Positions 8,159-64,000 of a DNA stretch of 64,000 nt are shown one piece after another (position 1 is the stretch's first letter; each line of letters opens with the position of its first letter). The notes beneath the pieces were generated by a model that did not search any database, was not told where the DNA came from, and was given only the letters and a program-made list of their open reading frames with translations. This DNA comes from Parcubacteria bacterium C7867-001 (lineage in GTDB: Bacteria; Patescibacteriota; Minisyncoccia; Phycocordibacterales; Phycocordibacteraceae): assembly GCA_001189095.1 (NCBI GenBank), contig LFCK01000001.1:20133-84132 (forward strand), written 5' to 3'. The translations under genes were made by a program, and so were the position numbers.

Positions 8159-8184
8159 GGGTTGTGTCTGGTACGCTTATCGTA

Positions 8185-9706: not shown

Positions 9707-12700
9707 ATGTACTTGAACCTTATATACACCTATACCATGCAACGACTTACTACCATCTGGGCACCCGCTCTCATTGCGTTCGCGCTGGTAACCGCTCCTA
9801 TGGTCTCCTACGCGCAAACAGCCCCCGTCATTCCTCAGGTACGCGTGTCACATGTTGAGATGCTTTCAGTAACGTTTACGGAAGGAGCGGTGGCGTCGGG
9901 AGTATTTACGATCTCAAACGCAGGGAGTGGGTCCGCGGGAAATATAGACTACGTCATCCGACTTGTTGGTGACTACGACAAGAATGGAAACTGGGGTGTC
10001 GAGTACGCTTCTCAAGAAGTAGGTCCAATAGCCCTTGGTCCGAACGAAGTTCGATTGGTGCCATTTGCTATTGAACTTCCTGCAGGGGTTGCGGGGAACG
10101 ATCTTGGTATAGAAGTGCAGGCAATGCTTGGTTCAGGATTCCCGCTCGGGTGGGCAGAGAAGCGTATCATTATTACCGGTACGCACACCTACCCAAAACT
10201 TACTGAAGCATATGTTGCAATCGGAGAAGGTAAGTTTGCGGTCGGTGAAGGGCCAACGATTCACTCAGATGAGAGCGCGGAATTGGTAGGAACATTTCAG
10301 AATAACGCTGCAACATCCCTTACACTTACTCCAAGCATCGCGCACAAGTCGATGACGGGTGACGTCGTCCGTACCGAGAAGGCCGCAACGTTTACGATTG
10401 CGCCAAACAGTTCACATGAGTTTCGTATCCCCGTAGCAGCGAGTAGCGCAAAGCCCGGCGTGTACCTCGCGAACATTACCTTCCTCGATGAGGGTGGAAA
10501 GCAGCATGCCCAACTTGTAAGCTATCGATACATTCTCCAAGGAGACGATATCGCAAACATTCAGTCTGCGAGTGCGGACAAAATAAGCGTTAAAGCAAAA
10601 GAGACAGTCACTATTTCGGTTTCCTTCAGTGGTACGCCGCCTGATATCAATCGTCCGGGAGCAAAAGAACAAGGAGTCGCTCTTCTTACGGTGAAGGCAT
10701 ACAGCGAGCGTGGGACAGAACTGGGTTCGAATACAAAGGAAGTAAATCTCGATACTGAGCACGTAGCCAGTGTCCCAATTGTGGTGAACGCTTCCGCAAG
10801 TTCTCTTCAGGTAAGTGCCACCCTTACGAAAGATGGGAAGGTGCTTGCCTCTCTCGAAGCGCCAGTGTCACCGAAGTTCGGTATTGAATCGATTCGTGCG
10901 AAAACGGCACTGTACTTCATGTATAGCCTCACAGCGCTTCTTGTTATTATCGGTCTCGTCCTGCTGGTGCGGAGCTATCGTTCTACGGTGCCGATGGTAA
11001 AGACACGTCAAGCGGGCATTACGCTTCTCGCGCTTGCGGCAGTTTCCGGTATTGTCAGCGTACTTATCATTATCGGTTTGTTTACGCCCCCGCAACAGGC
11101 AGTGAGCTTGAACCTCTCCACTCCGGTCGCGCATGCTGAGGGCAATCAAAAGGTTTGCGTTACCGATCCAGCAGCGTGTGGTCTTGGTGGCGGCGAAGCA
11201 GGAACACAGGAAGTCATTGTAAATCCTGATGTATGTCCGCTCGATGATGGTGTGCAGGAAATTGGGACGCCCTGCGTTCATTCAGAAATGGTTAGTTTCA
11301 TATTTGTTAATGACAATGCAACGTGGGAGTACTACGTGAGGACGTACCTTCCTATATGGAAGAAGACATCCACTGTTCCGTATCGGTATTGGCAGTTTGA
11401 GGATCGGTATGATGAATCAGTTGGTATCGGATTGAGTCCATCGCGTGTCACCATGGAAGCTACGAACAATCCATTACAGAATCCTTTTACGCATGCCTAT
11501 GACTCGTATTGGGAAGCAGGAATGGGAGGAGCAAGCAAGCGGTATATAGCAACAGATGCAGCCTCTTCGGCGGAACAATACTACGAAACACCATCTGACT
11601 TTAACAATCAGCCGCCATTCGTTAGCGTTTCTTCAATTCCTGGACCGATTCGCCCAGGAGACGAGTTTACGCTACAAGGAGCAATCACCTACGTCGACTG
11701 CACAAACACTCCTTCAGGCTTCTTGGTAAATGGAAGATTCGAAGGTCAGGAATTCTCGCAGGAATTTCCTGCAAACCAGTTCACTGGTCACGAACTCACT
11801 ACTGTTCAGAGACGCTTCTCTAAAACATTTACTGCTCCAACCACTCCCGGTATCTATAGGGTGTACTTGGATATGGGTTGGGAAGTTCCCGTACTTTCGA
11901 TGGGAGGCACGCTTCGTGGCCACATTGACATTGAGGTGAAGGCGGAAGTTGACCTTACACCGACCGACCTTGCACCAACGAGCGCTATTGTGAATGTACC
12001 AACAACCGTGTCGGTAAAGGTAAATAACACCGAACCTGATCCGGTTGGAATAAGTAACACGCGTTTCGAAATTCAGGGTCCTGATTTTGGGTATGAAACC
12101 CACACCGTGCAAGGGGAAAGTTGCACCATAACAAAAGAGGGGCAGATATGTGAGCCAACAACTTCGGAAGAGTCAGTCCAGATCGGGTATTACCTCGACC
12201 AGCATGTGGTAACGGCCGCAATGTCCGGTAACGGTTTCTCGACAGCTTCGTTCCCGCTTACGTTTACACAAGAAGGAACGTATAAAGTCCGAGCGTGCGT
12301 CGACTATGCATGTGGTTGGAATGCATACGGCGTATATTCGTGTGATGTGGGTTCGATTCCTGAAACGAATGAGGCCAACAATTGCACGGCAGGAGATTGG
12401 ACCGACATTGTGGTAGGTCCGGCAGTTGCTGCTGTGTCTTGCACCGTCAACAACGAAAACCCCGCTCTCGGTGAATCAGTCACATACACCGCAACTCCGG
12501 TATATGGTGCAACCGGCCCATACATCTGGACGGCCTCCGACGGTGCAACTGGTCTCGGCACAGGCAGCACCGCAACACGCTCCTTCTCTACCGCGGGTAC
12601 CTACGGTATGAGCGTATCTGCAACCGGCGCACTCTCTTCAGGATTCTGTCCAAACGTGACGGCGGGCAATGCGTGCTCGAACCCTGAAGCAACACTCTCT

Positions 12701-12952
12701 GCCTCTCCAAACCGTGTGAAGCAAGATGTCCCAACCCAAGTCACCTTCAGCTATAGGGCAACGGGTGCTTCTTCCTGCACACTCACCGGTCCTGATGTGA
12801 ACCAAACGTATACCGCAAACGAATGTACTGTCTCAGCAGGGACGCACAATGCGACCCTCACCATCACCACTCAAGGGGTGTATACCCTCACTTGTGACGG
12901 CGACGAAGCGAAGGCCGTTGTGAACGTCATACCGAAATTCAATGAGTTCTAG
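9707..12952 (+). CDS. Large surface protein (1081 aa): signal peptide, two internal TM helices, a Cys-containing distal region, and a conserved C-terminal domain ending in KFNEF
   Basis: The N-terminus has a signal peptide (LTTIWAPALIAFALVTAPMVSYAQT). Two TM helices lie mid-protein (YFMYSLTALLVIIGLVLLV and GITLLALAAVSGIVSVLIIIGLF). A C-terminal module of about 175 aa is shared with the CDS at 13903-15861. Confidence 0.7.
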   Translation: MYLNLIYTYTMQRLTTIWAPALIAFALVTAPMVSYAQTAPVIPQVRVSHVEMLSVTFTEGAVASGVFTISNAGSGSAGNIDYVIRLVGDYDKNGNWGVEYASQEVGPIALGPNEVRLVPFAIELPAGVAGNDLGIEVQAMLGSGFPLGWAEKRIIITGTHTYPKLTEAYVAIGEGKFAVGEGPTIHSDESAELVGTFQNNAATSLTLTPSIAHKSMTGDVVRTEKAATFTIAPNSSHEFRIPVAASSAKPGVYLANITFLDEGGKQHAQLVSYRYILQGDDIANIQSASADKISVKAKETVTISVSFSGTPPDINRPGAKEQGVALLTVKAYSERGTELGSNTKEVNLDTEHVASVPIVVNASASSLQVSATLTKDGKVLASLEAPVSPKFGIESIRAKTALYFMYSLTALLVIIGLVLLVRSYRSTVPMVKTRQAGITLLALAAVSGIVSVLIIIGLFTPPQQAVSLNLSTPVAHAEGNQKVCVTDPAACGLGGGEAGTQEVIVNPDVCPLDDGVQEIGTPCVHSEMVSFIFVNDNATWEYYVRTYLPIWKKTSTVPYRYWQFEDRYDESVGIGLSPSRVTMEATNNPLQNPFTHAYDSYWEAGMGGASKRYIATDAASSAEQYYETPSDFNNQPPFVSVSSIPGPIRPGDEFTLQGAITYVDCTNTPSGFLVNGRFEGQEFSQEFPANQFTGHELTTVQRRFSKTFTAPTTPGIYRVYLDMGWEVPVLSMGGTLRGHIDIEVKAEVDLTPTDLAPTSAIVNVPTTVSVKVNNTEPDPVGISNTRFEIQGPDFGYETHTVQGESCTITKEGQICEPTTSEESVQIGYYLDQHVVTAAMSGNGFSTASFPLTFTQEGTYKVRACVDYACGWNAYGVYSCDVGSIPETNEANNCTAGDWTDIVVGPAVAAVSCTVNNENPALGESVTYTATPVYGATGPYIWTASDGATGLGTGSTATRSFSTAGTYGMSVSATGALSSGFCPNVTAGNACSNPEATLSASPNRVKQDVPTQVTFSYRATGASSCTLTGPDVNQTYTANECTVSAGTHNATLTITTQGVYTLTCDGDEAKAVVNVIPKFNEF

Positions 12953-13024: not shown

Positions 13025-13906
13025 ATGAGAAAGGTGATAGCTCTCGGTGTGGGCGCCGTCGTAATCGTTTTGATCGGTATTCTTGTGCTTAATCCGCAGC
13101 TCGTACGATATCTGAAGAATCAAGTTGCACTTCTCACTGGTTCGATAACCTTAGAAGAGGAACTTAAGCCCGCGTTGTTTGTTGCTCCTCTTAACGGCGG
13201 GGTATACACCAGCAACGGGAAAAACGTCACGCGTGGGTATCTTCCGAAAGGGACTGTGATCATTGATGCTGCGCGATCTCCGACGAGGCTCGTTGTCGTT
13301 AGTCGTCTCCCTGATGGGCTCTATGGCATATGGACTGATGGTATCTTGCGTACGTCGTCAGCGACAAAGAAAAACGACATCGACGTTACGCCAAACGGGT
13401 ATCGCGTTGCGTATGTTGAAGAGGGAAAAGGAACATCATCGGTCATTCTTTTGACCGCAGACGGTGTGTCCCAAACAATCGCAAGCAGTTCGCAGCCGCT
13501 CTTCTTGAGCGACACGGTCATTGCAGTATCGGATGCGAGCGGCGTTGCGCTCTATGCTCTTGAAGACCTTACGAAAGCTCCTCGCCGCGTCGCAGTGCTC
13601 GGTACGGCAACTGCGCTTGTCGCCGCATCTCCTGATAGGAGCTTCATCGCGGCAGTTGATGAGGAGAAAGGACAGACAACTGTGTATCGATCAATCAATC
13701 CGCAGGAAGGACTGTTTGTCGCGCAGTCGGTTTCTCCCTACCTTGCAGCATCTTCACTTATCCTTACTCCAAACGCACTCTATGTGCTTACCCCGCCAAA
13801 TAAATCACTGCAGCGTGGACTCTTCAAATACTCATTTGATGGTGGTGCCCCAGCAAAGCTCCGCAGTTACGATGGCGATATGTATATAACCAAGATACTT
13901 CCATGA
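13025..13906 (+). CDS. Membrane-anchored beta-propeller/TolB-like repeat protein (hypothetical)
   Basis: An N-terminal TM anchor (VIALGVGAVVIVLIGILVL) is followed by repeated strand-rich segments. The gene sits between the two large secreted-protein genes. Its stop overlaps the next start in an ATGA arrangement. Confidence 0.5.
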   Translation: MRKVIALGVGAVVIVLIGILVLNPQLVRYLKNQVALLTGSITLEEELKPALFVAPLNGGVYTSNGKNVTRGYLPKGTVIIDAARSPTRLVVVSRLPDGLYGIWTDGILRTSSATKKNDIDVTPNGYRVAYVEEGKGTSSVILLTADGVSQTIASSSQPLFLSDTVIAVSDASGVALYALEDLTKAPRRVAVLGTATALVAASPDRSFIAAVDEEKGQTTVYRSINPQEGLFVAQSVSPYLAASSLILTPNALYVLTPPNKSLQRGLFKYSFDGGAPAKLRSYDGDMYITKILP

Positions 13907-15861
13907 TGCGCTCTTCTTTTTTTCGTACGGCAACGTTGACGCTTCTCTTTTTTGCAGCGTGGGTCTCTTTGGTGCATGCAGACGGTATGGCTGACCCGTG
14001 CGCGGGAGAACTGTCTCAAATTTGTTTCCCCTCAGATCCGGTAGCATCCGTATCGCTCACCGCGTACCCAGATAGCGTGCCGACAGCCTCTCATTCCACT
14101 GATCTTTCATGGGCTGCAGAAAACGTGGATTCATGTACGAGCTCGGGTTTCAGTACGGGCAGTGCCTTCTATGGGAGTCTGTCGCTAGTTCCCGGCTCAA
14201 CGCAGACCTATACCATCACGTGTACCAGTTCTCTGGGAACAGTATCCGATTCAATCACTGTTTCGGTTACCCCGAAACCAGATTTCATTTCTGGTAACGT
14301 GGGAAGTGTATCGGCGACCGTCGGTAATCCGGTAACGCTCAGCGCAATGATTGGGAATGTGGGCAACGCTGATTCAGTGAGCCCTTTTTATTACGCCTTC
14401 ACACTCAATGGTCCGACTCCGGTGTATGTAGCAGGGTATCGTGATGCCTCCCTTGCGGCAGGAGCAAATATGATTGCTTCAGAAGAAGTCACCTTTGCGA
14501 TACCCGGCACCTACAGTGCGGTTGTGTGTGCGGATACTACGAACGCAATAAATGAAACATCGGAGACAAACAACTGCAGCGAACCAGTACAGATTATTGT
14601 ATCGGACGCCGTGGAGTGTTCAGACGGTATTGATAACGACGGTGATGGGGGTGTCGATGTATCGGGTGCGTCTGGCGGCACGGTGACGGGACCGGAGTGC
14701 GGTGAAGGTATCCTTATTTTGGAAGGACCTTATAATTATTCTGGAAATTCGCCGTCTGGCGGTTACTTTTCGTGGCCTTCATGTGAAGCTGCTCCACTGC
14801 CGCCTGATGCTGACTGTAGTAGCGGGGGAGATACTAATGAAACCCATGTACCACAATGTTCCGACGGTATCGATAACGATGGTGACGGGGGTGTCGACTT
14901 TGAGGGTATAAATGACCCAGGGGGTACATTCTGCGGTAACGTCACAACACAGAGCGGCTACGATGGTGAAGGGCACCTCGACCTCTTCTGTGTTTCTGAG
15001 TACGAGGCCGGTACTATTGGGATTCGGTGGGCATATTATGGCAATAACCTGCAGGGAGGCATGTGTACTAGTTGGGGATTTGATAACGGAGCATACGCAC
15101 CAAATGGTGGAGGGGGCGAGAGCGGCGGTACGTCAGGAGAAGTCCTTGTTACACCAACAGAAGACACCGACTACGGCTTATCATGCTCGACAGACTGCAA
15201 CATATATAACGGCTGTATCGATCTTGATGGCTCAACCGCTGAAGCAAGCGGTGGGTTCCAAGTAACCGTGCAGGCACCGGTTACTGTTGATGCTGATCCG
15301 GGCTGCGAAAGTCCTGAGGACGAAACCGAGTCGCCGGACCCGACGCTCTCGTGCACAGTCGATTCTTCATCTGTTTCTCCGGGTGGCAGCACTACGTACC
15401 GCGTAACGGGAGGGGGTACTCCATACGCATGGACCGCTTCAGATGGGGCAACAGGACTTGGGACAGGCTCGACGGCAACGCGCTCTTTCCCATCTGCAGG
15501 AAGCTACAGCATGTCGGTCTCCTCAACAGGCTTTACTGCAGGAACGTGTCCTGCGGTTATCGTGAGCGGTTCGTCATGTTCAAATCTTTCCGGAAGTCTC
15601 TCGGTGAGTCCGAATCGCATAACCGAAAATACTTCGACGCAGGTGACCTTTACCTACACCGCAACAGGGGTCACGAATTCCTGCACCATAGAGGGTCCCG
15701 GAGTAAACGAGACGCTCTCTATCTCTGGCTGCAATGCAACAGGTTCGACACTCACCCAAACCTTAAATATCCCGAATCAGGGGGTCTATAACCTCACGTG
15801 CGACGGGACTCGTGTCGGCCGTGCAGTCGTGAATACGAAGGTCCGCTTCCAAGAGTTTTAA
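13903..15861 (+). CDS. Large secreted protein (652 aa) with two MopE-like CxDGxDNDxDGxxD motifs and the same C-terminal module ending in RFQEF
   Basis: There is a signal peptide ([19 protein letters not shown]). [16 protein letters not shown] and [15 protein letters not shown] repeats are present. The C-terminal roughly 175 aa are paralogous to the C-terminus of the 9707-12952 protein. Confidence 0.7.
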
Positions 15862-27271: not shown

Positions 27272-27394
27272 GGGAAACCCAAAACCAAGCGCCACGCGAA
27301 AATCGCGTGGCGCTCTTGTTGTAGGCCGTATTCGGGCGTTTGACGTACCCCTTGACAAATGGCGGAATATAGTGTACTTATATGTAGGACCGAT

Positions 27395-28117
27395 ATGGCA
27401 TTGGTACACAAGGTGGCGGCAGCCGTTCGTGCCGCACAGGATACGTATGCAAGGAAGTGGACCTTCCTTGCGGCTTTTCTTGGTGTCTTCTTCGTCTCGT
27501 TCCTCATCCTGCAGGATCTCGGTTTCGTGCCGAATCCGCCGCAGATTGCGGAAGCGGGTACGAACGAACCGAAGGTAACGCTTGAAGCGTCGCCGCTTGT
27601 TGCGGCTCCGTCTTCAATGGCTCACCTCTCGGCGGATGTGTCGGATGCAGGGCTTTTCGGTCTTCATGCTGGCGAGCTTCCGGTCGCCATCGAGATTCCG
27701 ACCATCGGTCTTTCAGTGAAGGTGTCGAATCCGAATTCGACCGATGTCGGGAAGCTCGATGCGGCGCTTCTTACCGGAGCAGTCCGCTACCCGACGTCCG
27801 GCACGCTTGGCGTGAAGGGTAATGTCGTTATCTTCGCGCACTCGAGCTACCTTCCGGTCGTGAAGAATCCGGCGTTCAAGGCGTTCGATGATATTCAGAA
27901 GCTCGCACCGGGTGAGCGCATCACGGTATATTCAGGCACTCGTGCGTATACCTATGCAGTGACTCGTGTAGAAAAAGTGAAAGCCGACGATGCAGCTATT
28001 CCGCTTACGGTGAATGGCAGCAAGCTGACGCTCTCGACGTGTGACTCGTTTGGCACGAAGAGTGATCGCTTTGTCGTCACCGCAGATTTTGTTGAAAGCC
28101 ATACGCTCGCGAACTAA
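27395..28117 (+). CDS. Sortase-family transpeptidase
   Basis: There is an N-terminal TM anchor. The conserved His is in NVVIFAHSSY. The catalytic TLxTC motif is LTLSTCD. The ORF-track start at 27359 is a possible alternative. Confidence 0.75.
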   Translation: MALVHKVAAAVRAAQDTYARKWTFLAAFLGVFFVSFLILQDLGFVPNPPQIAEAGTNEPKVTLEASPLVAAPSSMAHLSADVSDAGLFGLHAGELPVAIEIPTIGLSVKVSNPNSTDVGKLDAALLTGAVRYPTSGTLGVKGNVVIFAHSSYLPVVKNPAFKAFDDIQKLAPGERITVYSGTRAYTYAVTRVEKVKADDAAIPLTVNGSKLTLSTCDSFGTKSDRFVVTADFVESHTLAN

Positions 28118-28208: not shown

Positions 28209-29351
28209 ATGCCAGAACGTCGTGAGACTCGCGACGGGATCGGGTTCTTCGGGTGGGCGGGTTTACTCGCACTCCTGTTGATTATTTTCGGAGGCGCGTT
28301 CCTGTATTGGGACACGCACCGGAACCCCAGCCTGTCGAATGATTCCGGCGCCGCGCCTTTTGCGGCTACGGAGGATACGAGTACTGAACCGGTGGAGGCG
28401 CGTGCGCCACCACCGGAAGAACCGGCTGCGGAAACCAAACCGCAGACCGACTCGCCGAAGCCGCGTAACACCGGCTTCTACTACGGTCTGAAGGATCCGA
28501 GCGAGCTCGCAAAGCTCGTCGAGGACAATCTTCGGAAGGATCCGACGGGGAAGACGATGATCAACCCCGAGAAATGCGCCAAGGACGGCTCATGCGCCAG
28601 TCCTCATGACTATCTCGTTATGTTCCAAGAGAACGACCCGGAAGCTGAGCTCACGTCAGTGGCCCAGCTCCCTGCGTTCCTGCGGAGCCTTGTCGCTCGG
28701 GACCCCGGTCCCGGCGAGTATCAGATGGCGTGCATCAGGATGCCGGCTCACACGCCGGACCTGCACTGCATGAAGCGTAAATTCCTGCCGGGCGAAAAGG
28801 TCTATGTCGACCCCAAGTCGAATAGGGCCATCTTTGCTTGGCACTGCACGAACCCCATCGATAAACCGGTGGAGCCACGGCAGTGCATGGAAATCATGGT
28901 GACCATCAAAGGCGAGCGTTCGATGAAGTTCGCGCACCTCGGCCCCGCCAAGGTGCAGGACTCGTGCCTTGCTTTGCGCAAGGTCGGAGTGGGAGTAATT
29001 CCGCTTCGCGAGTACGTCGGTGAGTGCGACTTCGACGCGGTTGCCGAGTTCTTCGGCGAACGCGTGCGCGAGGAGTACTGCGTTCCGGTAACACCCGGTA
29101 CGTACATTCTCACGGTCGCGGCGAAGCCTTACGGCGAGCCAAAGACCCGTCACTGGTGGGTGTTCTGTTGGTCGGATGAGGACGACGTGTCGTCGAACAC
29201 GATGCGCGTCCGAGACTTCGATTACATCGGCAACGATGTGCGTCGCGCGACGATTTACAACTCGCGCGATGAAATGGAAGACAAGACCTATCCCAAGAGC
29301 GTTTCGCACTTGTGGATTCCGTGGAGCGAAGAGCCCGGCACGGACCGCTAA
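28209..29351 (+). CDS. Membrane-anchored Cys-rich hypothetical protein (380 aa)
   Basis: A GAGGAGG RBS is present. There is an N-terminal TM anchor (FFGWAGLLALLLIIFGGAFLYW), a Pro/Glu-rich linker, and more than 10 Cys in the C-terminal domain. A terminator lies at 29358-29400. Confidence 0.55.
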   Translation: MPERRETRDGIGFFGWAGLLALLLIIFGGAFLYWDTHRNPSLSNDSGAAPFAATEDTSTEPVEARAPPPEEPAAETKPQTDSPKPRNTGFYYGLKDPSELAKLVEDNLRKDPTGKTMINPEKCAKDGSCASPHDYLVMFQENDPEAELTSVAQLPAFLRSLVARDPGPGEYQMACIRMPAHTPDLHCMKRKFLPGEKVYVDPKSNRAIFAWHCTNPIDKPVEPRQCMEIMVTIKGERSMKFAHLGPAKVQDSCLALRKVGVGVIPLREYVGECDFDAVAEFFGERVREEYCVPVTPGTYILTVAAKPYGEPKTRHWWVFCWSDEDDVSSNTMRVRDFDYIGNDVRRATIYNSRDEMEDKTYPKSVSHLWIPWSEEPGTDR

Positions 29352-29357
29352 GGGAAT

Positions 29358-29400
29358 GGACGGCACGCTTCGCGTGCCGTCCTGAACCTCCTCTTTTTTG
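29358..29400 (+). terminator. Intrinsic terminator after the Cys-rich protein gene
   Basis: ggacggcacgc-ttcg-cgtgccgtcc is followed by a T6 run about 10 nt downstream. Confidence 0.5.
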
Positions 29401-29464
29401 TACGCCCGCAAGGGCAGGGGCTTATTTATTACCTGTTTATCAATTGAACGAAACAACAACACGT

Positions 29465-31381
29465 ATGGTGTACTTCACCGAACAGATCGCATATGTGAAA
29501 TCGCGACCGATTGCCGTCGGTATTTTCGCCGTGCTTGCTGCCGTCTCGATCGGCATGACCGTCGCTGTCGCGACTGGCATGACGCTTCCGACGAAAGCGT
29601 TCGCGGACGTTGGTCCTCCCTGCTGCACGGAGCCGCCTCCTCCGCCCCCGCCTCCTCCACCACCCCCACCGCCTCCGTCGAGCTGTGATTCACTCACGGC
29701 GTCGGCAACGGAAATTAATTCAGGCGATGCGGTTACCCTTACGTGGCACACCACCAACGCCGACTCGGTCACTATCGATCAGGGTGTTGGTTCGGTGACA
29801 CCAGTCGGTTCAGGTTCGGTTGTCGTACATCCGACTGCGGATACGACGTACTCGGCTACCGTTACGGGTCCTGGCATCGTCAGCGAGCCGTGCCATGTTG
29901 AAGTAAAGATAAAGACCATCACTAACTCGGCGCAGTGCGTGTCGTTTGCGGCAAGCGCGTCGAACATCACGGCTGGTCAGGCAGTCACGCTTTCGTGGCA
30001 GACCCTTAATGCAACGGGAGTTACCATCGACAACGGTGTCGGTGCGGTAACGCCGATTGCGTCCGGTTCCACTGTCGTGCATCCGACCGCGAACACGACC
30101 TATACCGCAACGGTTGCAGGTGCAACCGGTAACGTGACGTGTGCCGCTTCGGTCCACATCACGACTATTACAACCGGTCCGTCTTGCGTCGCTCTTACAG
30201 CGAACAAGACCACGATTAGTTCTGGCGAAGCAGTCGTTCTCTCGTGGCAGACGCTTAATGCCACCTCGACCTCAATCGATCAGGGCATTGGTTCGGTTAC
30301 TCCAGTCGGTTCAGGTTCCGTAACGGTGAACCCAACCTCTGATACGACCTACACCATGACCACTGCGGGCGCTCCGGCGAACGACAGCTGTAAGGTGACG
30401 GTTCGCATTCAGACGAGTTCCTGCGTCGGCTCGTGCTGCACAGGCAGCTGCGGTGGCGGCGGTAATCCGAAGCCGAAGGTCATCCTTGGCGTCGCAACCT
30501 CTTCGCCGCTTGCCTTCGTGTATCTCTCGCAGGTTCCGTACACCGGTCTTGATCTCGGTCCGCTCGGTACCTTCATGTACTGGCTCGTGCTCATCCTCTG
30601 GAGCGCAGCAGCTGCGTACCTTGTGCTCTTCACGGCAGCCCCATTCGCTGCTCGTCGTCTCCGTTCGTTCGGGGAAGATGTGCGCGATGTTCTCAATGGA
30701 AATGAATCGGTCTCAACTGCGCCGGTCATGCAGGCATCGGCGGGGGATCATTCAGGTGGACATAATCTTATGCCGCACGCTCCAGTTCCAGTTCACCGTG
30801 CTCCAGAAGCATCGAGCACGTTCTCGAACTTCCACGGCTTCCGCTCGTTTGCGCAGGGCACTGAGCTTACGATCGATGATCTCGTGAAGGGACTCGCTCG
30901 CGAACACGCAGTACATGCTGCTCCAGTTGCGCATATCGAGGATCCGAAAGAAGATGCGTACGCGTTCTCGTCTGAACGAAATGTCGAGCCTATCGCCCCG
31001 CATCTTCCGACTGAAATAGGGAAGATTGAACCGATCATGGACGTATTCGCACACGCAATCGAAGTTCGTGGATTCATTTCCGCGCTCGTCGAGAAGGACA
31101 AGGAGGCGCTCTTCGGCGCACTTCGCCAAATCGTTCGCGGCGGCGGTAGCGTTGAGCACTTCCTTACGCAGGTCGCGCACGCACTCGATGATGTCTTCCG
31201 CTCGCGCATCGACGGTACGCCGGCAGATCCCGAGATGGTTCGCATCTGTGTGAACTGCGACACGCCGGTTCTTGAGCAGCTCGTCGGTCACTTTGCGACG
31301 GCAATCGACTCAAGCTACTCGACCGATGTCACGGCAGGTAAGATGGCGGTCACTCGCGCACTTACGACGCTCGAAGCGTAA
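29465..31381 (+). CDS. Modular membrane protein with six parts: signal/anchor; poly-Pro linker; three tandem Ig-like repeats of about 80 aa; a VPYTG motif; a TM helix; a C-terminal domain of about 240 aa
   Basis: The protein has PPPPPPPPPPPPPPP. The repeat consensus is AVTLxWxTxNAxxxxIDxGxGxVTPxxSGSxxVxPTxxTTY. Further downstream is SQVPYTGLDLGPLGTFMYWLVLILWSAAAAYLVLF followed by RRLR. The ORF-track start at 29312 overlaps the upstream gene and is rejected. Confidence 0.6.
   Translation: MVYFTEQIAYVKSRPIAVGIFAVLAAVSIGMTVAVATGMTLPTKAFADVGPPCCTEPPPPPPPPPPPPPPPSSCDSLTASATEINSGDAVTLTWHTTNADSVTIDQGVGSVTPVGSGSVVVHPTADTTYSATVTGPGIVSEPCHVEVKIKTITNSAQCVSFAASASNITAGQAVTLSWQTLNATGVTIDNGVGAVTPIASGSTVVHPTANTTYTATVAGATGNVTCAASVHITTITTGPSCVALTANKTTISSGEAVVLSWQTLNATSTSIDQGIGSVTPVGSGSVTVNPTSDTTYTMTTAGAPANDSCKVTVRIQTSSCVGSCCTGSCGGGGNPKPKVILGVATSSPLAFVYLSQVPYTGLDLGPLGTFMYWLVLILWSAAAAYLVLFTAAPFAARRLRSFGEDVRDVLNGNESVSTAPVMQASAGDHSGGHNLMPHAPVPVHRAPEASSTFSNFHGFRSFAQGTELTIDDLVKGLAREHAVHAAPVAHIEDPKEDAYAFSSERNVEPIAPHLPTEIGKIEPIMDVFAHAIEVRGFISALVEKDKEALFGALRQIVRGGGSVEHFLTQVAHALDDVFRSRIDGTPADPEMVRICVNCDTPVLEQLVGHFATAIDSSYSTDVTAGKMAVTRALTTLEA
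29630..29677 (+). repeat. CCN simple-sequence repeat encoding poly-proline
   Basis: The DNA is ccgcctcctccgcccccgcctcctccaccacccccaccgcctccg. Confidence 0.8.
29681..30415 (+). repeat. Three diverged tandem coding repeats (about 243 nt each)
   Basis: The repeats are recognisable at DNA level (gtcggttcaggttc...ccgac...acgac.ta.ac) and at protein level. Confidence 0.7.
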
Positions 31382-52222: not shown

Positions 52223-55984
<3,762 letters not shown>

Positions 55985-56004: not shown

Positions 56005-56035
56005 CGAAAAACCGCCCAACAGGGCGGTTTTTCGT
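56005..56035 (+). terminator. Intrinsic terminator after rpoC
   Basis: gaaaaaccgccc-aaca-gggcggtttttcg. Confidence 0.7.
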
Positions 56036-56117
56036 ACATTGACTCTAGACCAATAATATGTTATAGAGAATTCAGACCTGAACGTTCGTTTCAGGCACAG
56101 CAAGAGAAAGGCAATCA

Positions 56118-56996
56118 ATGAAAATTGCTGGTATTGGCCTCGCGCTCGTCATGTTCGCGATGGTCTCGGGCTGCGGCCCTTCTGCAAAACAAGTCGCTGA
56201 GGCGACCGCTTCGATCAACGCGCAAGACCGAGCTCTCGATCGGCGCGATGCGCTCGATCGTCTGATGAAGTCGCTTAGGCCTGTTGACCAGGCTCGATTC
56301 GAGATGGAAATGTTCCGCGTGCGTGATGCACGCGAACTCCGTCTGGGCGACAACGCCTCGAAGGGCGAAATTCTGCGCGCGCGGAAAGTCATATGGCGCG
56401 CGGAAGAACTCGCTGAATACAAGTTGCCTGCAACGGCAACCGACGAGGATCTCTATGCGGCAAAAGAACGCAAATGGCTCAAAGAAGACGCGAAAGACCT
56501 CGGCCTTCCGGTGAGCGCATCAAAAGCGCAGGTCGATGCGGCGCGCAAAGCGAAGTACGACGCTGACAGCGAGAAGTCTCGCGTCAGGATGGCGCTCGAC
56601 CTCGGTCTTCCCGCGACAGCGTCGTGGAAAGAAATCGAAACAGCGGAAGCCGATAGGCGTCGCGTCGATGCTGCACTTCGGCACGGGCTGCCAAAAACGG
56701 CCACGTGGGTCCAAATCAGCCGCAAGGCTGACGAGGATAACGCGGCGACCGATGCGAAGTACAAGGCGCTTCGGCGGGCGAACAGCGACTACGAAAAGGC
56801 GCAGGACGCACTCGAGGACGCACAGCGTCGCATCGACGCACTCGAAGCCGGCCTTCCGGAAACAGCGAGTCGCGATCAAATCGAGGAGCACGAAATCAAT
56901 CGTGTGCGTCGCTATGCGGCGGCCAACCTCGGTCTCTCTGAGGGTTCGTCTTGGGGGCTCATTTTCGATGCGACCCAGCACGACTCTCGATACTAG
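56118..56996 (+). CDS. Lipoprotein with five or six tandem degenerate repeats centred on an (L)GLPxTAS motif
   Basis: The lipobox is AMVSGC. The motifs KLPATAT, GLPVSAS, GLPATAS, GLPKTAT, GLPETAS and GLSEGSS are spaced about 25-40 aa apart in a charged helical background. Confidence 0.65.
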   Translation: MKIAGIGLALVMFAMVSGCGPSAKQVAEATASINAQDRALDRRDALDRLMKSLRPVDQARFEMEMFRVRDARELRLGDNASKGEILRARKVIWRAEELAEYKLPATATDEDLYAAKERKWLKEDAKDLGLPVSASKAQVDAARKAKYDADSEKSRVRMALDLGLPATASWKEIETAEADRRRVDAALRHGLPKTATWVQISRKADEDNAATDAKYKALRRANSDYEKAQDALEDAQRRIDALEAGLPETASRDQIEEHEINRVRRYAAANLGLSEGSSWGLIFDATQHDSRY

Positions 56997-57005
56997 AAAC
57001 GACTA

Positions 57006-57040
57006 CAACGCCCCGCGGCTTCCGCGGGGCGTTTTCTTAT
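57006..57040 (+). terminator. Intrinsic terminator after the lipoprotein gene
   Basis: caacgccccgcgg-cttc-cgcggggcgttttctta. Confidence 0.7.
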
Positions 57041-57072
57041 GCTAGGGTGCCGGCAGAAAGAAGGAGAAACGA

Positions 57073-57372
57073 ATGAAAGAGTTTGATGTTCCTGAAGGAA
57101 TGACGTCTGAACTGGTGGCGTGTACATTTGCGGCGTACCTCTTAGGAAGCCTCTTCAACAGCAACTGGCAAAGATCGGTCTACGGTCCATTTCGAAAAGA
57201 CTATCGAGAAGGCACTGACTATGAAAGATGGCAGCTCGATAACACAAACGACTACTGGCTCCATATTGAAGGAAATAAAGCAAAACTTGTCTCTCGCTAC
57301 GATCGCCAAGATGTTCTTGAGGCGATGTTGACCCTCTTCAAGCTCCGGTTTCCGCAACGCGCTCACGCGTAG
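57073..57372 (+). CDS. Hypothetical protein (99 aa)
   Basis: An AAGGAG RBS is present. The ORF is flanked by terminators at 57006-57040 and 57381-57410. Confidence 0.5.
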   Translation: MKEFDVPEGMTSELVACTFAAYLLGSLFNSNWQRSVYGPFRKDYREGTDYERWQLDNTNDYWLHIEGNKAKLVSRYDRQDVLEAMLTLFKLRFPQRAHA

Positions 57373-57380
57373 TTGTGCTT

Positions 57381-57410
57381 AACGGCCCGCCAAAGGCGGG
57401 CCGTTTTTCT
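57381..57410 (+). terminator. Intrinsic terminator, near-identical to the one at 31395-31427
   Basis: taacggcccgcc-aaa-ggcgggccgtttttct. Confidence 0.65.
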
Positions 57411-60405: not shown

Positions 60406-60632
60406 TTTTCTCTTTCGAAGATCCGGATACCCCAAGGGTACTTCCAATTTCCTAACTCGCTGTCGCTCCTAACGAAATTTGGGCGCGCACGAAAAGCCTC
60501 AAAATATCAAAGTAAACAACCAGTTTATTTGGGGAGGAAATACTGGTGCCTAATGGCGCGTGTGGACAAAAAACTCACCTGTTATAGAGTTTAGGTATCC
60601 GATAGCTATAACAACAGCCGGCACATACACGC

Positions 60633-61331
60633 ATGGCCATTTTTTCCAAAAAAAGAAGTCTAATATCAGGCGAGATTAGATACCGACCTACATTAACCTC
60701 TGCAAAAGGGGGTGTTGAGCTTGCAAAGCTACTTGAGGGAAAATTTCCTCATTGGCGAATTCGCAACGGACAGGACGTGGCACTTCTCGACGAAACAAAA
60801 AAGTGGCTGATCGAAATTAGATATAACTCACTTATTTTTCAAAATGAAGGCGAGGAAGCAGGAACAGAACTTATTGATCTCCTTGAGCTCGTGTTCAACG
60901 AAGTTAAGGAACATTTTGGCATAAGTGATTATTTACACGTAGGTTGTCGCAATAAGTCTGTTTACGCTTGCTCATTTCAAGAGAAAGACCTAGTTGATTT
61001 AACTTTCCGTAAATTGTATGGAAATACGTCCGTGCTTACTTCAATGTCAGGTGACAAATTAAGGGATACAGGTTTTGTACTAGATGCAACAAAGGGTGAA
61101 CTAAACACGCATGTTCAAATTGGTCCAGCAAAAGAAGGTCAGGCAGAAAATTTCATCAACAACCAATTTGATGTAGAAGATCTAGAAGGTAATAGCTTCT
61201 TAATGGTAGACGTGGACGTATTTAAGAAAACCTCCCTCACAAAGGAGAGCTGCATTAACGTACTGAAGGAGGCCGCCGCTGTAAATTCTGAAGTAACCTC
61301 AGGGTACATCGACTTCTTGTCTACAAAATGA
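60633..61331 (+). CDS. Island gene A: hypothetical protein (232 aa) with no recognisable domain
   Basis: The ORF has an AT-rich composition distinct from its surroundings. Its stop overlaps the next start as ATGA. Confidence 0.55.
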   Translation: MAIFSKKRSLISGEIRYRPTLTSAKGGVELAKLLEGKFPHWRIRNGQDVALLDETKKWLIEIRYNSLIFQNEGEEAGTELIDLLELVFNEVKEHFGISDYLHVGCRNKSVYACSFQEKDLVDLTFRKLYGNTSVLTSMSGDKLRDTGFVLDATKGELNTHVQIGPAKEGQAENFINNQFDVEDLEGNSFLMVDVDVFKKTSLTKESCINVLKEAAAVNSEVTSGYIDFLSTK

Positions 61332-61945
61332 TATTCCCAGTTCTACCGCCAGCCGACATAAACCTAACTAATTTTGCTGCTCAGCAGGGTGTGATTGATC
61401 GCAATAGAAAGACGTCTGAAAGCGCTTCAGTTGAACGTTCAAGCAAGGATTCAGAGCGTGTTGAGGTTGAGAGGAAAGAGATAACGGCGGAGAGTGTCGT
61501 TTCTGAAGATCAAACTGTCATTGAGGGTGTCGAATTCAAAGAAAGTGATAAAAGCTCTTCTTCAGTCAACGACCAATCGCGTGAGCATTTCTCCAACGAG
61601 GGCTTTGGCGATGCATATATAAAACACAGTACAGCAGCAGCAATATTGCAGATTAAGAATCTCATCGAGGAGTGGAATAAAAAAGGAACTAAGGATAGTA
61701 CCTCAGAAATAAGCCAAATAAAAACTACTCTTGAGGAATACGCACCCTTCTTTACAGAAAGACCGGAGTCAGAAGTCTTACTGGGAGGACTGGAGACTAT
61801 TTTTGATGGTGATAGATGGGAAAGACTCGATTCAGCTAAATTAACCTTGATATCCAGGCAGCTTGAGAACTTTCAAGCTGGAAATGTGAGATGGGAGTCA
61901 CTCAGGAGATTTGCTCGAGAGATTTACTCTGCCGAAATTGTCTAA
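61328..61945 (+). CDS. Island gene B: hypothetical protein (205 aa) with a Ser/Glu-rich disordered N-terminal half and a helical C-terminal half
   Basis: The composition is AT-rich. The gene is translationally coupled to A. Its stop lies 2 nt before the start of C. Confidence 0.55.
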   Translation: MIFPVLPPADINLTNFAAQQGVIDRNRKTSESASVERSSKDSERVEVERKEITAESVVSEDQTVIEGVEFKESDKSSSSVNDQSREHFSNEGFGDAYIKHSTAAAILQIKNLIEEWNKKGTKDSTSEISQIKTTLEEYAPFFTERPESEVLLGGLETIFDGDRWERLDSAKLTLISRQLENFQAGNVRWESLRRFAREIYSAEIV

Positions 61946-61947
61946 AT

Positions 61948-62718
61948 ATGGCGAAGAGACAGAAGGTTCTAATAGATACTTCTATTCAAATCGGAAAATT
62001 AAAATATAAAGAAATTAGAGAAAAAATAAGAGAAATCGCTGAAACAGAAGATCCCGGGACGTCCTTTTTTGTGCTGTTTGAGTTCAAGGTCGGAGTGATT
62101 CTAAGTTTTATTGAATATTGGAACTTTGTAAATATTTCAGAAAATGTCTCGAAGGCTATGAGTAGATGGTCCGAGAAATATAGTGTTAGAGACGTTAAAT
62201 ACTTTGTAATGTTGCAAGCGATACTGGCTGAGAAATTTGAAAACATCTCCACAGACAAAAAGAAGCATTTAAGACAAGTTGAATTTATCATAATGTTCAC
62301 CATTGAAAACTTCTTCGCAGATATTCGAGATATACCAGTTGGTGATTTTAGGTATGACGAAATAGTGCGTTATGAAATAAAATCACGAGTTGATTACCCG
62401 GGGTTTGTGAAATTGTGCTATGAGAAAAACGAGATGGTAGATCAAAGGAAGTTTTGGACAAAATACAGAGCGGAACTAGATAAATTGGTTGCTGATGCGG
62501 ACCTGGAGAAGTGCCACTCTTCATTACACGAAGCGTTAACTCGTATTCAATCTGATATTAAATATGCTCACATGGTGAAAACGAATAAATCTATTGGAGA
62601 CGCCGTAATAACAGTTGACAGTAGACATGATACTCGCATTCTCACAACAGATTCTTCGTTCGAGAAGTTGGCGCCGATTTTAGGAAAGACTTTTGAGAAG
62701 ATACCAAATAAATACTAG
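61948..62718 (+). CDS. Island gene C: expanded PIN-like domain protein (256 aa), putative nuclease
   Basis: QKVLIDTSI resembles the PIN beta-1 Asp motif. FVLFEF supplies a conserved Glu. GDAVITVDSRHDTRILTTDSSF resembles the PIN C-terminal motif. About 150 aa are inserted between these elements. Confidence 0.5.
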   Translation: MAKRQKVLIDTSIQIGKLKYKEIREKIREIAETEDPGTSFFVLFEFKVGVILSFIEYWNFVNISENVSKAMSRWSEKYSVRDVKYFVMLQAILAEKFENISTDKKKHLRQVEFIIMFTIENFFADIRDIPVGDFRYDEIVRYEIKSRVDYPGFVKLCYEKNEMVDQRKFWTKYRAELDKLVADADLEKCHSSLHEALTRIQSDIKYAHMVKTNKSIGDAVITVDSRHDTRILTTDSSFEKLAPILGKTFEKIPNKY

Positions 62719-62729
62719 GACTCTTTGGC

Positions 62730-63167
62730 TCAACTACTTTTCCTTCGATTCTCTCGAACAATCGTAATTATGAGAACGGTCTCAGCGAGCGCGCCAAGTA
62801 TTATCTCGTTAGCGAAAGGAAATTTAAAAAAGTGAAAGTCTGCGAGACCAAAGACCATCAGAATTCCTAGACACAGATAGAATCCCACAGCAGTCATCAG
62901 AGCTCCTTCTACAAGATCTAAAAAGAAGGATGTACTACTGCGCCGGCCCTTATAGGCCGCGCCGATAACAATTGAATTTGTAACTACAAATGGTCCAGTA
63001 AAGGCTATTGATAACAAAACGAGTTTAATCCAATCCAGTTGGAATACTTGATTGGGATTATATACGTACATGGCCGTTAAGCCTGGCAAAATAATTGCCA
63101 AAACAGCAAAGAAAGCAAGTAAAAATGATTTATCCTGAAATGTTCGAACCATTGATCTAACGCTCAT
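62730..63167 (-). CDS. Island gene D: four-TM membrane protein (145 aa), convergent with C
   Basis: Four hydrophobic helices are present. The composition is AT-rich like A-C. Confidence 0.5.
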   Translation of the reverse strand: MSVRSMVRTFQDKSFLLAFFAVLAIILPGLTAMYVYNPNQVFQLDWIKLVLLSIAFTGPFVVTNSIVIGAAYKGRRSSTSFFLDLVEGALMTAVGFYLCLGILMVFGLADFHFFKFPFANEIILGALAETVLIITIVRENRRKSS

Positions 63168-63242
63168 TCGTTTATTCTAACATCGACCGAATGGGCTCGC
63201 CTTCTTCATCGAAATTAGAGGGTTGGACGGTATACTGAGTCC

Positions 63243-63716
63243 ATGAAAAAGATACAACCGTTTTTGTGGTTCAAGGAGAATGGGCAGGAGGCTATGGAGC
63301 TGTATACGAAGCTGTTTCCGGATTCGAAGATCGGCAATATAACCATGCTGCCGGACGCGCCAGGGCCTAAGGGTCAGTTCGTGGGCGAGTTCGAACTTAT
63401 GGCTGAGAAGTATATGTGCATACAGGGAGGAGAGAATCCGATGCTTGCTGCGGTGGGACCTGTATCGCTCGTCGCACTCTGCGATACACAGGAAGAGATA
63501 GATAAGCTTTGGGATGCCTTCAAGGAGGGCGGGAAGGAAATCGCGTGCGGCTGGATTACAGATCGCTTCGGCATTACGTGGCAGGTCACGCCGACCGTAC
63601 TCGGCGAATACATGAGCGATCCAGATCAGGAGAAAGCGCATCGCACCGCTATCGCGATGATGAATATGGTGAAGTTCGATATCGCTGCCCTCAAACGCGC
63701 GCACGACGGCGAATAG
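63243..63716 (+). CDS. PhnB-like / 3-demethylubiquinone-9 3-methyltransferase-domain protein (VOC/glyoxalase fold)
   Basis: MKKIQPFLWFKENGQEAMELYTKLFPDSKI is the typical family N-terminus. GC content returns to background. Confidence 0.65.
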   Translation: MKKIQPFLWFKENGQEAMELYTKLFPDSKIGNITMLPDAPGPKGQFVGEFELMAEKYMCIQGGENPMLAAVGPVSLVALCDTQEEIDKLWDAFKEGGKEIACGWITDRFGITWQVTPTVLGEYMSDPDQEKAHRTAIAMMNMVKFDIAALKRAHDGE

Positions 63717-63721
63717 CGCCT

Positions 63722-64000
63722 CTAGAGTGAATCCAAGCCCTCGGAAACCGTGACAACACGGACGTTATTTGCTTTGAGGTAATCCACGAGCTGATTGAAG
63801 AGTGTGGGCGTGATGCAGTATTGGTCCGAGCAGGAGCTTTGTACTTGGTGTGCGGTCAAGATGAGCCAGCGCTTATTCGCTAGCGCGGTGTCTACTCGGT
63901 TCTTAATCTCTGTCCAGGTGGTCGATGATTCGAGACCGTATCGCTCGAGCTGGTACGGATCTGATGCGAGTGTGACGTAGCCGCCGTTCGAGCTCGCGGC
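63722..64000 (-). CDS. C-terminal fragment of a protein running off the right edge (possibly polysaccharide-deacetylase-like)
   Basis: The minus strand reads ...NGGYVTLASDPYQLERYGLESS...RWLILTAHQVQSS...NNVRVVTVSEGLDSL*. The identification is tentative. Confidence 0.35.
   Translation of the reverse strand, partial: AASSNGGYVTLASDPYQLERYGLESSTTWTEIKNRVDTALANKRWLILTAHQVQSSCSDQYCITPTLFNQLVDYLKANNVRVVTVSEGLDSL

Follow-up and report, generated by a model that had tools for sequence, protein, structure and literature searches.

A predicted Parcubacterial lipoprotein whose repeated sortase-like motifs look like helix-capping corners

What does a motif resembling a sortase signal do when it recurs again and again inside a single protein? 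This question is raised by a gene of Parcubacteria bacterium C7867-001, a groundwater metagenome-assembled genome of ~0.81 Mb and 53% GC (PMC4508563). The gene lies in a 64,000-nucleotide stretch of contig LFCK01000001.1 (positions 20,133 to 84,132), referred to here as the window. The open reading frame (ORF) 56118-56996 on the plus strand, with an ATG start and its stop codon within these coordinates, encodes a protein of 292 residues; it corresponds, at 100% identity, to a deposited hypothetical protein, ABA06_00390. A first-pass annotation of the window had described it as a lipoprotein built from tandem degenerate repeats, had likened their LPxTA(S/T) core to sortase recognition signals, and had proposed a structural repeat as an alternative. 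The genome paper mentions neither sortase nor lipoproteins (PMC4508563). Our analysis indicates that the GLPxTAS core looks like a structural corner, where one helix stops and the next one restarts, and not like a sortase site. We consider it fairly probable that the gene product lies outside the cytoplasm, anchored by a lipid, that its ectodomain strings helices together through seven such corners, and that it has an architectural or spacer-type role at the surface of the Parcubacterial envelope. The helix-chain structure is reasonably supported; the function is what we infer.

The repeats go far beyond those of shuffled sequences. The strict pattern LP.[TS]A[ST] is found five times in the protein; 100,000 shuffles average 0.001 occurrences, and five was never attained in them. 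An independent hidden Markov model (HMM) of the unit, built from 491 units of non-orthologous proteins only, recovers seven units in the target at 8.9-31.5 bits, whereas the best unit score in 500 shuffles of the mature sequence is 5.0 bits. All six motifs listed in the first-pass annotation are present, with the LP or LS of units 2-7 at residues 103, 130, 164, 191, 246 and 273, and they are preceded by a degenerate extra unit, LRLGDNAS, at residue 76. Successive units are spaced by 27, 27, 34, 27, 55 and 27 residues, so that the intervals of 25-40 residues given earlier hold for 27 and 34 and miss the double-length 55. Unit 4 is the closest to the family consensus. The highly charged helical background also stands, K, R, D and E making up 37% of the mature protein and the model described below being all-alpha. 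Two ORFs overlapping the gene, 56536-57045 (+) and 56520-56981 (-), lack support, since it is in the frame of 56118 that the repeat and the homologous proteins are found.

Where these motifs lie in the folded protein is suggested by an AlphaFold2 model, built from an alignment of four sequences (mean predicted local distance difference test, pLDDT, 86.3, and 92-95 across residues 60-200; predicted template modelling score, pTM, 0.56). The protein is modelled as entirely alpha-helical and each motif as an eight-residue loop between helices, as the structural alternative of the first-pass annotation would have it. The loop of unit 1 is flanked by helices 55-73 and 82-100, and the helices following the seven motifs measure 19, 19, 26, 19, 47, 19 and 8 residues. 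Thus the 34 residues of unit 3 correspond to a helix (136-161) longer by 7 residues, and the 55 residues of unit 5 to a helix of 47 residues (197-243) after its corner. No known fold was matched by the model in a Foldseek search of the PDB (TM at most 0.15), nor was any match obtained against BFVD.

What the motif may mean emerges from its relatives. Position frequencies over 635 units, numbered with Gly as 0, give A..LGLPx[TDN]A[TS]Wx[EDQ]I as the consensus of the family. The most constant positions are Leu(+1) (96%), I/V/L at +10 (94%), T/S at +6 (89%), E/D/Q at +9 (88%), T/D/N/S at +4 (85%), Gly(0) (82%) and Ala(+5) (80%); Pro(+2) (72%), Ala(-4) (62%), Arg(-8) (55%), Leu(-1) (52%), Ala(+13) (47%), Trp(+7) (39%) and Glu(-11) (34%) follow. 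Placed on the helix boundaries of the model, Gly(0) and Leu(+1) would be C' and C'' of the preceding helix, and Thr/Ser(+6), Glu(+9) and Ile(+10) would be N-cap, N3 and N4 of the next one. These positions would correspond to established capping motifs (PMC4515027): a Schellman cap with Gly at C', a capping box of the form Ser/Thr-x-x-Glu, and a hydrophobic pair between N' and N4.

The distances between corners point the same way. Across 151 relatives, unit spacing goes in whole helical turns, with peaks at 23 (30 cases), 26-27 (227), 30-31 (34) and 34-35 residues (24), troughs at 25 (2 cases) and 32-33 (2 cases), and a recurrent double-length class at 54-55. On a helical wheel, the conserved positions in the first half of a helix (+7, +10 and +13) occupy a face roughly opposite to that of the positions in its last half (+16, +19, +23 and +26), as would be the case were each corner to build a small core together with the adjoining helix ends. 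Both features add to the case for a structural motif.

We therefore propose the following arrangement. The ectodomain of ~270 residues would consist of alpha-helices linked by seven copies of one tight helix-loop-helix corner. In each corner, Ala(-4)..Leu(-1)-Gly(0)-Leu(+1)-Pro(+2) would terminate one helix through a Schellman-type cap with Gly at C', while +4 (Thr/Asp/Asn), Ala(+5), the N-cap Thr/Ser(+6) and Trp(+7)-x-Glu/Asp/Gln(+9)-Ile(+10) would start the next, combining a capping box with a hydrophobic contact. We suppose a packing of the helices in three dimensions in which every corner carries its own small core and the helix middles vary freely, their length changing only by whole turns. 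Such a protein would have a definite arrangement of several helices whose exposed surfaces change rapidly, its geometry being conserved as the faces diverge.

A quite different explanation is that the LPxTA(S/T) cores are sortase sites, the sortase of the window or another transpeptidase cleaving after Thr and thereby linking or releasing helical modules. The sortase gene reported in the first-pass annotation is indeed real (27359-28117, PF04203, E 7e-20) and lies 28 kb from the lipoprotein gene. The core, which reads LPxTA in four units of the target, or five counting LPVSA, resembles the LPXTG, LPNTA and LPxTATN signals, and NCBIfam even has a model for a class D sortase specific to LPxTATN (NF058671). 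However, the encoded sortase falls far below all class cut-offs of NCBIfam, with at best 41.5 bits (class E) versus 160, and with 33.7 bits versus 140 for NF058671. The motifs also lack the context of a sorting signal: they are internal, sevenfold and located in what are confidently modelled as tight inter-helix loops, and none is followed by a membrane-spanning segment and a basic tail. The maximal 15-residue hydropathy of the mature protein is 0.7, and the residues after the last motif are WGLIFDATQHDSRY. The scissile Thr itself is not invariant, as the target units carry N, T, S, T, T, T and G at this position (including LGDN, LPVS and LSEG), and over the 635 units +4 is Thr in 35%, Asp in 26% and Asn in 15%, Asp or Asn together reaching 41%. 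Well outside LPxT, the residues Gly(0), Ala(+5), Thr/Ser(+6), Trp, Glu and Ile are conserved too; most family members are devoid of an export signal, and one member (P0072) is a phage head-protease protein; and a turn-quantised spacing would be meaningless for a linear peptide signal. The resemblance to a substrate signal is thus not borne out, and we regard sortase cleavage at these motifs as very unlikely.

One observation does favour it. LPxT is present in 67% of the units of the lipoprotein orthologs, in 33% of those of other members with a hydrophobic N-terminus and in 24% of those of the rest (67% versus 24%, Fisher p 6e-8), a contrast which is uncorrected for relatedness and inflated by shared ancestry. 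It is also the sole positive hint for a related scenario, in which corners of the exported Parcubacterial subfamily would have been co-opted as LPxTA(T/S) sites of a sortase-like transpeptidase, so that a lipid-anchored protein would be cross-linked to the wall or trimmed internally. With the structural and architectural evidence all against it, this scenario appears to us highly improbable; to our knowledge, sortase action at internal, repeated sites has not been described.

In the vicinity of the sortase gene, the only element resembling a sorting signal belongs to ORF 29312-31381 (+), which lies two genes past the sortase; it consists of VPYTG, a membrane-spanning segment and then RRLR. Its product of 689 residues contains a poly-Pro stretch and three Ig-like repeats; VPYTG is found in mid-protein (residue 408) and ~240 more residues follow RRLR. 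This element looks like a sorting signal placed away from the C-terminus, and the listed GTG start of the ORF is probably too far upstream.

Anchoring by an N-terminal lipid is suggested by the first residues of the protein. The N-terminus MKIAGIGLALVMFAMVSGC conforms to a PROSITE PS51257-type lipobox rule, which asks for Lys or Arg within the first 7 residues, then an uncharged hydrophobic stretch, then [LIVMFWSTAG](2)-[LIVMFYSTAGCQ]-[AGS]-C, its Cys falling at position 15-35. Here Lys2 and an uncharged hydrophobic region precede the lipobox MKIAGIGLALVMFAMVSG-C19 (...FAMVSGC), in keeping with the lipoprotein assignment of the first-pass annotation. The rule also holds for four of the five orthologs described below (P0002, P0003, P0007 and P0008); the fifth, P0005, fails it as called, begins with MSLLTACGPSS and looks like a gene call cut at its N-terminus. 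The target would thus be lipidated and processed at Cys19. The Lnt-like gene to which attention had been drawn does exist in the window, at 7942-9663 (+), at a distance of 46 kb and with no specific link to the lipoprotein gene. Its product of 573 residues matches PF20154 (LNT_N) at 49 bits, above the domain cut-off, and TIGR00546 at 79 bits, below the cut-off of 132.9; no CN-hydrolase hit is listed for it in Pfam at E <= 1e-4. We read it as a divergent apolipoprotein N-acyltransferase homolog in a bacterium of the candidate phyla radiation (CPR).

The repeat is not a peculiarity of this protein. A full HMMER scan of 1.84 billion cluster representatives with a 4-sequence profile returned 286 proteins at E <= 1e-3, of which 64 reach E <= 1e-10. 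Five of them are orthologs (P0002, P0003, P0005, P0007 and P0008), of 269-296 residues and 32-41% identical to the target. They have its repeat plan and, at the C-terminus, the conserved cap WGxI[YF]D; W279, G280, I282 and D284 are invariant in the alignment of the six sequences. Seven units with nearly the same spacing as in the target are recovered in P0002, P0003 and P0008. In P0005 and P0007 the unit HMM finds only six and five, respectively, and intervals of double length show where units were missed. The non-orthologous members share the repeat only. They display many architectures over lengths of 43 to 2,274 residues, some being small proteins with 2-4 units, and an N-terminal signal or membrane segment was found in 36 of 151 family members. 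The longest, P0006 (2,274 residues, 23 units, no signal peptide), is encoded on a contig of 3.87 Mb; its units are nearly identical, LGLAPTASVAEIN alternating with LGLDPNSTPEQVK, and it carries a separate C-terminal LPVPGTGIVGKG repeat. At the other extreme, P0079 (95 residues; locus L004, 1749-2036 (+)) has three units and no export signal, hence the repeat is not limited to exported proteins; its gene adjoins S1-domain and FtsA-like genes on a CPR-like contig.

By its sequence, the target can be placed in a family defined here by a 27-residue LGLPxTATWxEI helix-corner repeat, membership requiring at least two tandem units that match a profile free of the target and its orthologs, at a spacing of 27 residues plus or minus whole helical turns. 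Pfam, NCBIfam and PHROGs yielded no family for the target, for which Pfam gives no hit at E <= 1 beyond noise. No informative name is attached to any of 10 family members that were looked up, nor to the three small proteins that alone were returned by a word-indexed search with a double-unit profile. Searches of the PDB sequences with a full-length profile (E <= 1), of phage records by tblastn with the regular-repeat relative P0004, and of species-representative genomes gave no match, and a scan of metagenomes gave four partial matches at the level of the repeat, with no new ortholog. A literature search on helix-extension-helix, repeat and lipoprotein brought up no relevant paper. The target would be an alpha-helical tandem-repeat lipoprotein, a known kind of protein, built on a 27-residue single-helix repeat that is widespread and yet undescribed in the libraries searched here. 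Within the 64-kb window there is no other copy of the array. A single marginal corner, YGLESSTTWTEI (11 bits), occurs in the ORF fragment 63725-64000 (-), which runs off the end of the window; this helix corner seems to stand alone, the protein being apparently unrelated in other respects.

Among known helical repeats, TPR, Sel1 and HEAT show a general likeness: their tandem alpha-helical units are a few dozen residues long, degenerate in sequence, and conserved at positions that take small or hydrophobic residues. TPR and Sel1 repeats are defined by units of 34-44 residues with two antiparallel helices, by a profile match and by a superhelical fold; both are rejected for the target, for which Pfam gives no such match. 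Of the two outcomes that the first-pass annotation would have taken as refutation, an absence of significant periodicity and an assignment to a class such as Sel1 or TPR, neither occurred, the periodicity being strong.

A closer likeness is that to J-domains (DnaJ, PF00226). Their helix I/II corner has the pattern hydrophobic-Gly-hydrophobic-x3-Ala-Ser/Thr-x2-Glu-Ile with equal spacing (ILGVPRNATQEEIKRAY), and it is with such corners that a double-unit profile of the repeat finds its best matches in the PDB (~23 residues, E 0.026-0.18, or roughly 0.03-0.2), which agrees with the resemblance to the first J-domain helix remarked on earlier, albeit by marginal hits (E 0.03-0.1). SAP and other helix-extension-helix motifs likewise comprise two helices and a short Gly-containing loop with similar hydrophobic spacing. 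The repeats could then be J-domain-like or SAP-like modules recruiting an Hsp70-type chaperone or binding nucleic acid, for instance extracellular DNA. Weak DnaJ, SAP, UBA_HYPK and Brz hits of individual relatives and the conserved mid-helix Arg, present at -8 in more than half of the units, would fit this idea. CPR bacteria depend on the uptake of external nucleic acid. However, the target has no HPD tripeptide, which J-domains carry in the loop between helices II and III, no four-helix J fold and no PF00226 hit (E <= 1), and forms a tandem array with a predicted extracytoplasmic location. The alignment covers no more than the 23-residue corner of a domain of ~63 residues, and membership in the J-domain family is rejected. 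Nor is there any significant match of the target to SAP. One relative gives a faint hit (E 0.016) over 12 residues, and the period of 27 residues, with each helix shared by two consecutive corners, differs from an isolated motif of ~35 residues. The scattered sub-threshold library hits of the relatives (DnaJ, Brz zinc ribbon, SAP, RPT and Mu-like_Pro) all fall on the short corner motif, for which reason the Brz hit (E 3e-4, 21 bits versus a cut-off of 100) was dismissed. The J-domain corner and the target repeat share a supersecondary motif and not family membership, and a chaperone-recruiting or nucleic acid-binding function is in our opinion very unlikely.

The phage relatives raise yet another possibility, that of a polyprotein cut at the repeated motif into peptides of ~27 residues, as phage scaffolds are degraded by head proteases. 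A tandem LGLxxxA[TS]xxE[IV] repeat also occurs in charged helical regions of Mu gpI-like head proteases (PF10123, phrog_328, phrog_3894), in what corresponds to their linker or scaffold part. In P0072 the repeat is C-terminal to a bona fide Mu gpI-like head-maturation protease domain, and the repeats of P0017 and P0025 hit the middle of these protease families, P0017 even reaching the PF10123 cut-off through its repeat region. The target, in contrast, has a lipobox and neither a protease domain nor a PHROG or PF10123 hit, and its gene is not part of a prophage but stands between rpoC and dnaG, at a conserved place in the chromosome. Moreover, no protease partner was found in its gene neighbourhood, the corners are modelled as ordered, and the units differ in length and sequence and would yield no uniform peptide. 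We find this possibility scarcely credible for the target.

This chromosomal slot, between rpoC (52223-55984) and dnaG/rpoD in the order rpoB-rpoC-X-dnaG-rpoD, is conserved. In the four loci that were fetched with orthologs P0002, P0003 and P0007, the gene holds the same place after rpoC, and a small conserved unannotated gene comes next, then dnaG where the contig reaches that far. Between the window and one of these loci (L001), RpoC is 90% and DnaG 73% identical, the lipoprotein only 37%. The invariant columns of the ortholog alignment are almost all in the corners. Together with the identity values, this means that the repeat architecture is kept while the helix surfaces turn over quickly, which suggests that the target is an exposed, fast-evolving architectural surface protein. 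We picture an elongated, charged, all-helical ectodomain that would be held at the membrane by its N-terminal lipid. An analogy may be drawn with Braun's lipoprotein Lpp, which also combines an N-terminal lipid anchor with an all-helical, Ala-rich and charged ectodomain and a presumed architectural role, though it has no sequence or structural relationship to the target. Lpp itself forms a short coiled-coil trimer, which in diderms is cross-linked to peptidoglycan.

The main functional alternative to an architectural role would be that of a specific adhesin, of a receptor-like protein for a host or partner cell of this episymbiotic-type bacterium, or of a phage target; the helices would then serve as a display scaffold, and their variable faces would be functional and under diversifying selection. 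Structurally it overlaps with the explanation we favour, from which it differs only in role. The predicted surface location would suit it, as would the contrast in identity with the flanking genes while repeat number and helix lengths are kept. The ortholog group is, besides, restricted to its lineage and very rare: among billions of proteins only a handful of clusters belong to it, and species-representative genomes contained no member. Conversely, no similarity to any adhesin family appeared in library and structure searches, a weak constraint on solvent-exposed helix faces may explain the divergence, and synonymous sites are saturated at the distance of the orthologs. We hold such a role to be rather unlikely.

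Several points weigh against an architectural, lipid-anchored helix chain. Relaxed constraint could equally explain the fast divergence. Lipidation is predicted from the sequence, and lgt and lspA were not found among the window ORFs scanned, where only the Lnt-like gene was seen. The model is based on four sequences and its pTM is just 0.56. Finally, the LPxT enrichment of the orthologs is not predicted by a purely structural model.

Should our reading be correct, a sortase-like sequence would be explained as a helix-capping corner, a caution for the motif-based annotation of CPR surface proteins. The unnamed 27-residue single-helix repeat family, with at least 286 clusters including P0072, would be a candidate for a new family model. 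As nearly all its conserved residues would be signals for stopping or starting a helix, and as its length varies by whole helical turns, it would provide a natural example for the classification and design of repeat proteins. A lineage-restricted, fast-evolving and probably surface-exposed lipoprotein in a fixed chromosomal slot of a Parcubacterial clade would also be a reasonable candidate for studies of the envelope or of cell-cell contact in these uncultivated bacteria. The reading of the target bears on no long-standing open question.

Table 1. Features of the lipoprotein gene and its immediate surroundings (window coordinates)
Feature	Coordinates	Strand	Residues	Remarks
GC-rich hairpin, A/T runs on both sides	56005-56034	.		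just 3' of the rpoC stop (55984)
Possible sigma-70-like promoter	56039-56067	+		TTGACT-17 nt-TATAGA; direct reading of the sequence, weak evidence
Signal peptide with lipobox V-S-G-C	56118-56174	+		Cys19 codon 56172-56174, predicted lipidated first mature residue
Repeat unit 1	56328-56408	+	71-97	degenerate corner LRLGDNAS; 10.3 bits; loop 74-81
Repeat unit 2	56409-56489	+	98-124	corner YKLPATAT; 18.5 bits; loop 101-108
Repeat unit 3	56490-56591	+	125-158	corner LGLPVSAS; 18.3 bits; loop 128-135
Repeat unit 4	56592-56672	+	159-185	corner LGLPATAS; 31.5 bits; loop 162-169
Repeat unit 5	56673-56837	+	186-240	corner HGLPKTAT; 20.2 bits; loop 189-196
Repeat unit 6	56838-56918	+	241-267	corner AGLPETAS; 24.7 bits; loop 244-251
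Repeat unit 7	56919-56993	+	268-292	corner LGLSEGSS and conserved C-terminal cap SWGxI[YF]D; 8.9 bits
Intrinsic-terminator-like hairpin	57007-57033	+		12 pairs, 10 GC, then TTCTTATGCT; 11 nt past the lipoprotein stop
Small conserved gene	57073-57372	+	99 aa	directly downstream; synteny link only

The surroundings of the gene are listed in Table 1. The upstream hairpin, whose plus-strand palindrome is AAAAACCGCCCAACAGGGCGGTTTTT, is given by the hairpin scan on the minus strand with 13 pairs, 8 of them GC, and would be a terminator-like element separating rpoC from the lipoprotein gene. Because terminator-like hairpins stand on both sides, the gene may form a transcription unit of its own. The possible promoter is absent from the output of a consensus promoter scan, which demands T at position 6 of the -10 hexamer, and a ribosome-binding site AGAAAGG can be read upstream of the gene.

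Homologs of the small downstream gene occupy the same position in three related lineages, with 52% identity in L008 and 27-28% in L001 and L009, where they reach 166 residues; the gene has its own flanking hairpins, and its product has no match in Pfam or NCBIfam. The mechanical listing places the beginning of the dnaG ORF at TTG 57373, so that it runs over a strong hairpin (57381-57405). Since the ortholog alignment starts at Met27, the real start is probably ATG 57451.

Further away, GC content goes down to 43-44% in 60500-64000, compared with 50-59% elsewhere in the window, and three consecutive ORFs of this region (60633-61331, 61328-61945 and 61891-62718) have no Pfam match; it may be an acquired island. 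At the other side of the window, two large secreted proteins with WxLIP_HBD-like and CARDB domains are encoded at 9707-12952 (+) (1081 residues) and 13903-15861 (+) (652 residues). Their C-termini are very similar (...TLTCDG...AVVN..[KR]F[NQ]EF) and may represent a shared C-terminal tag or domain.

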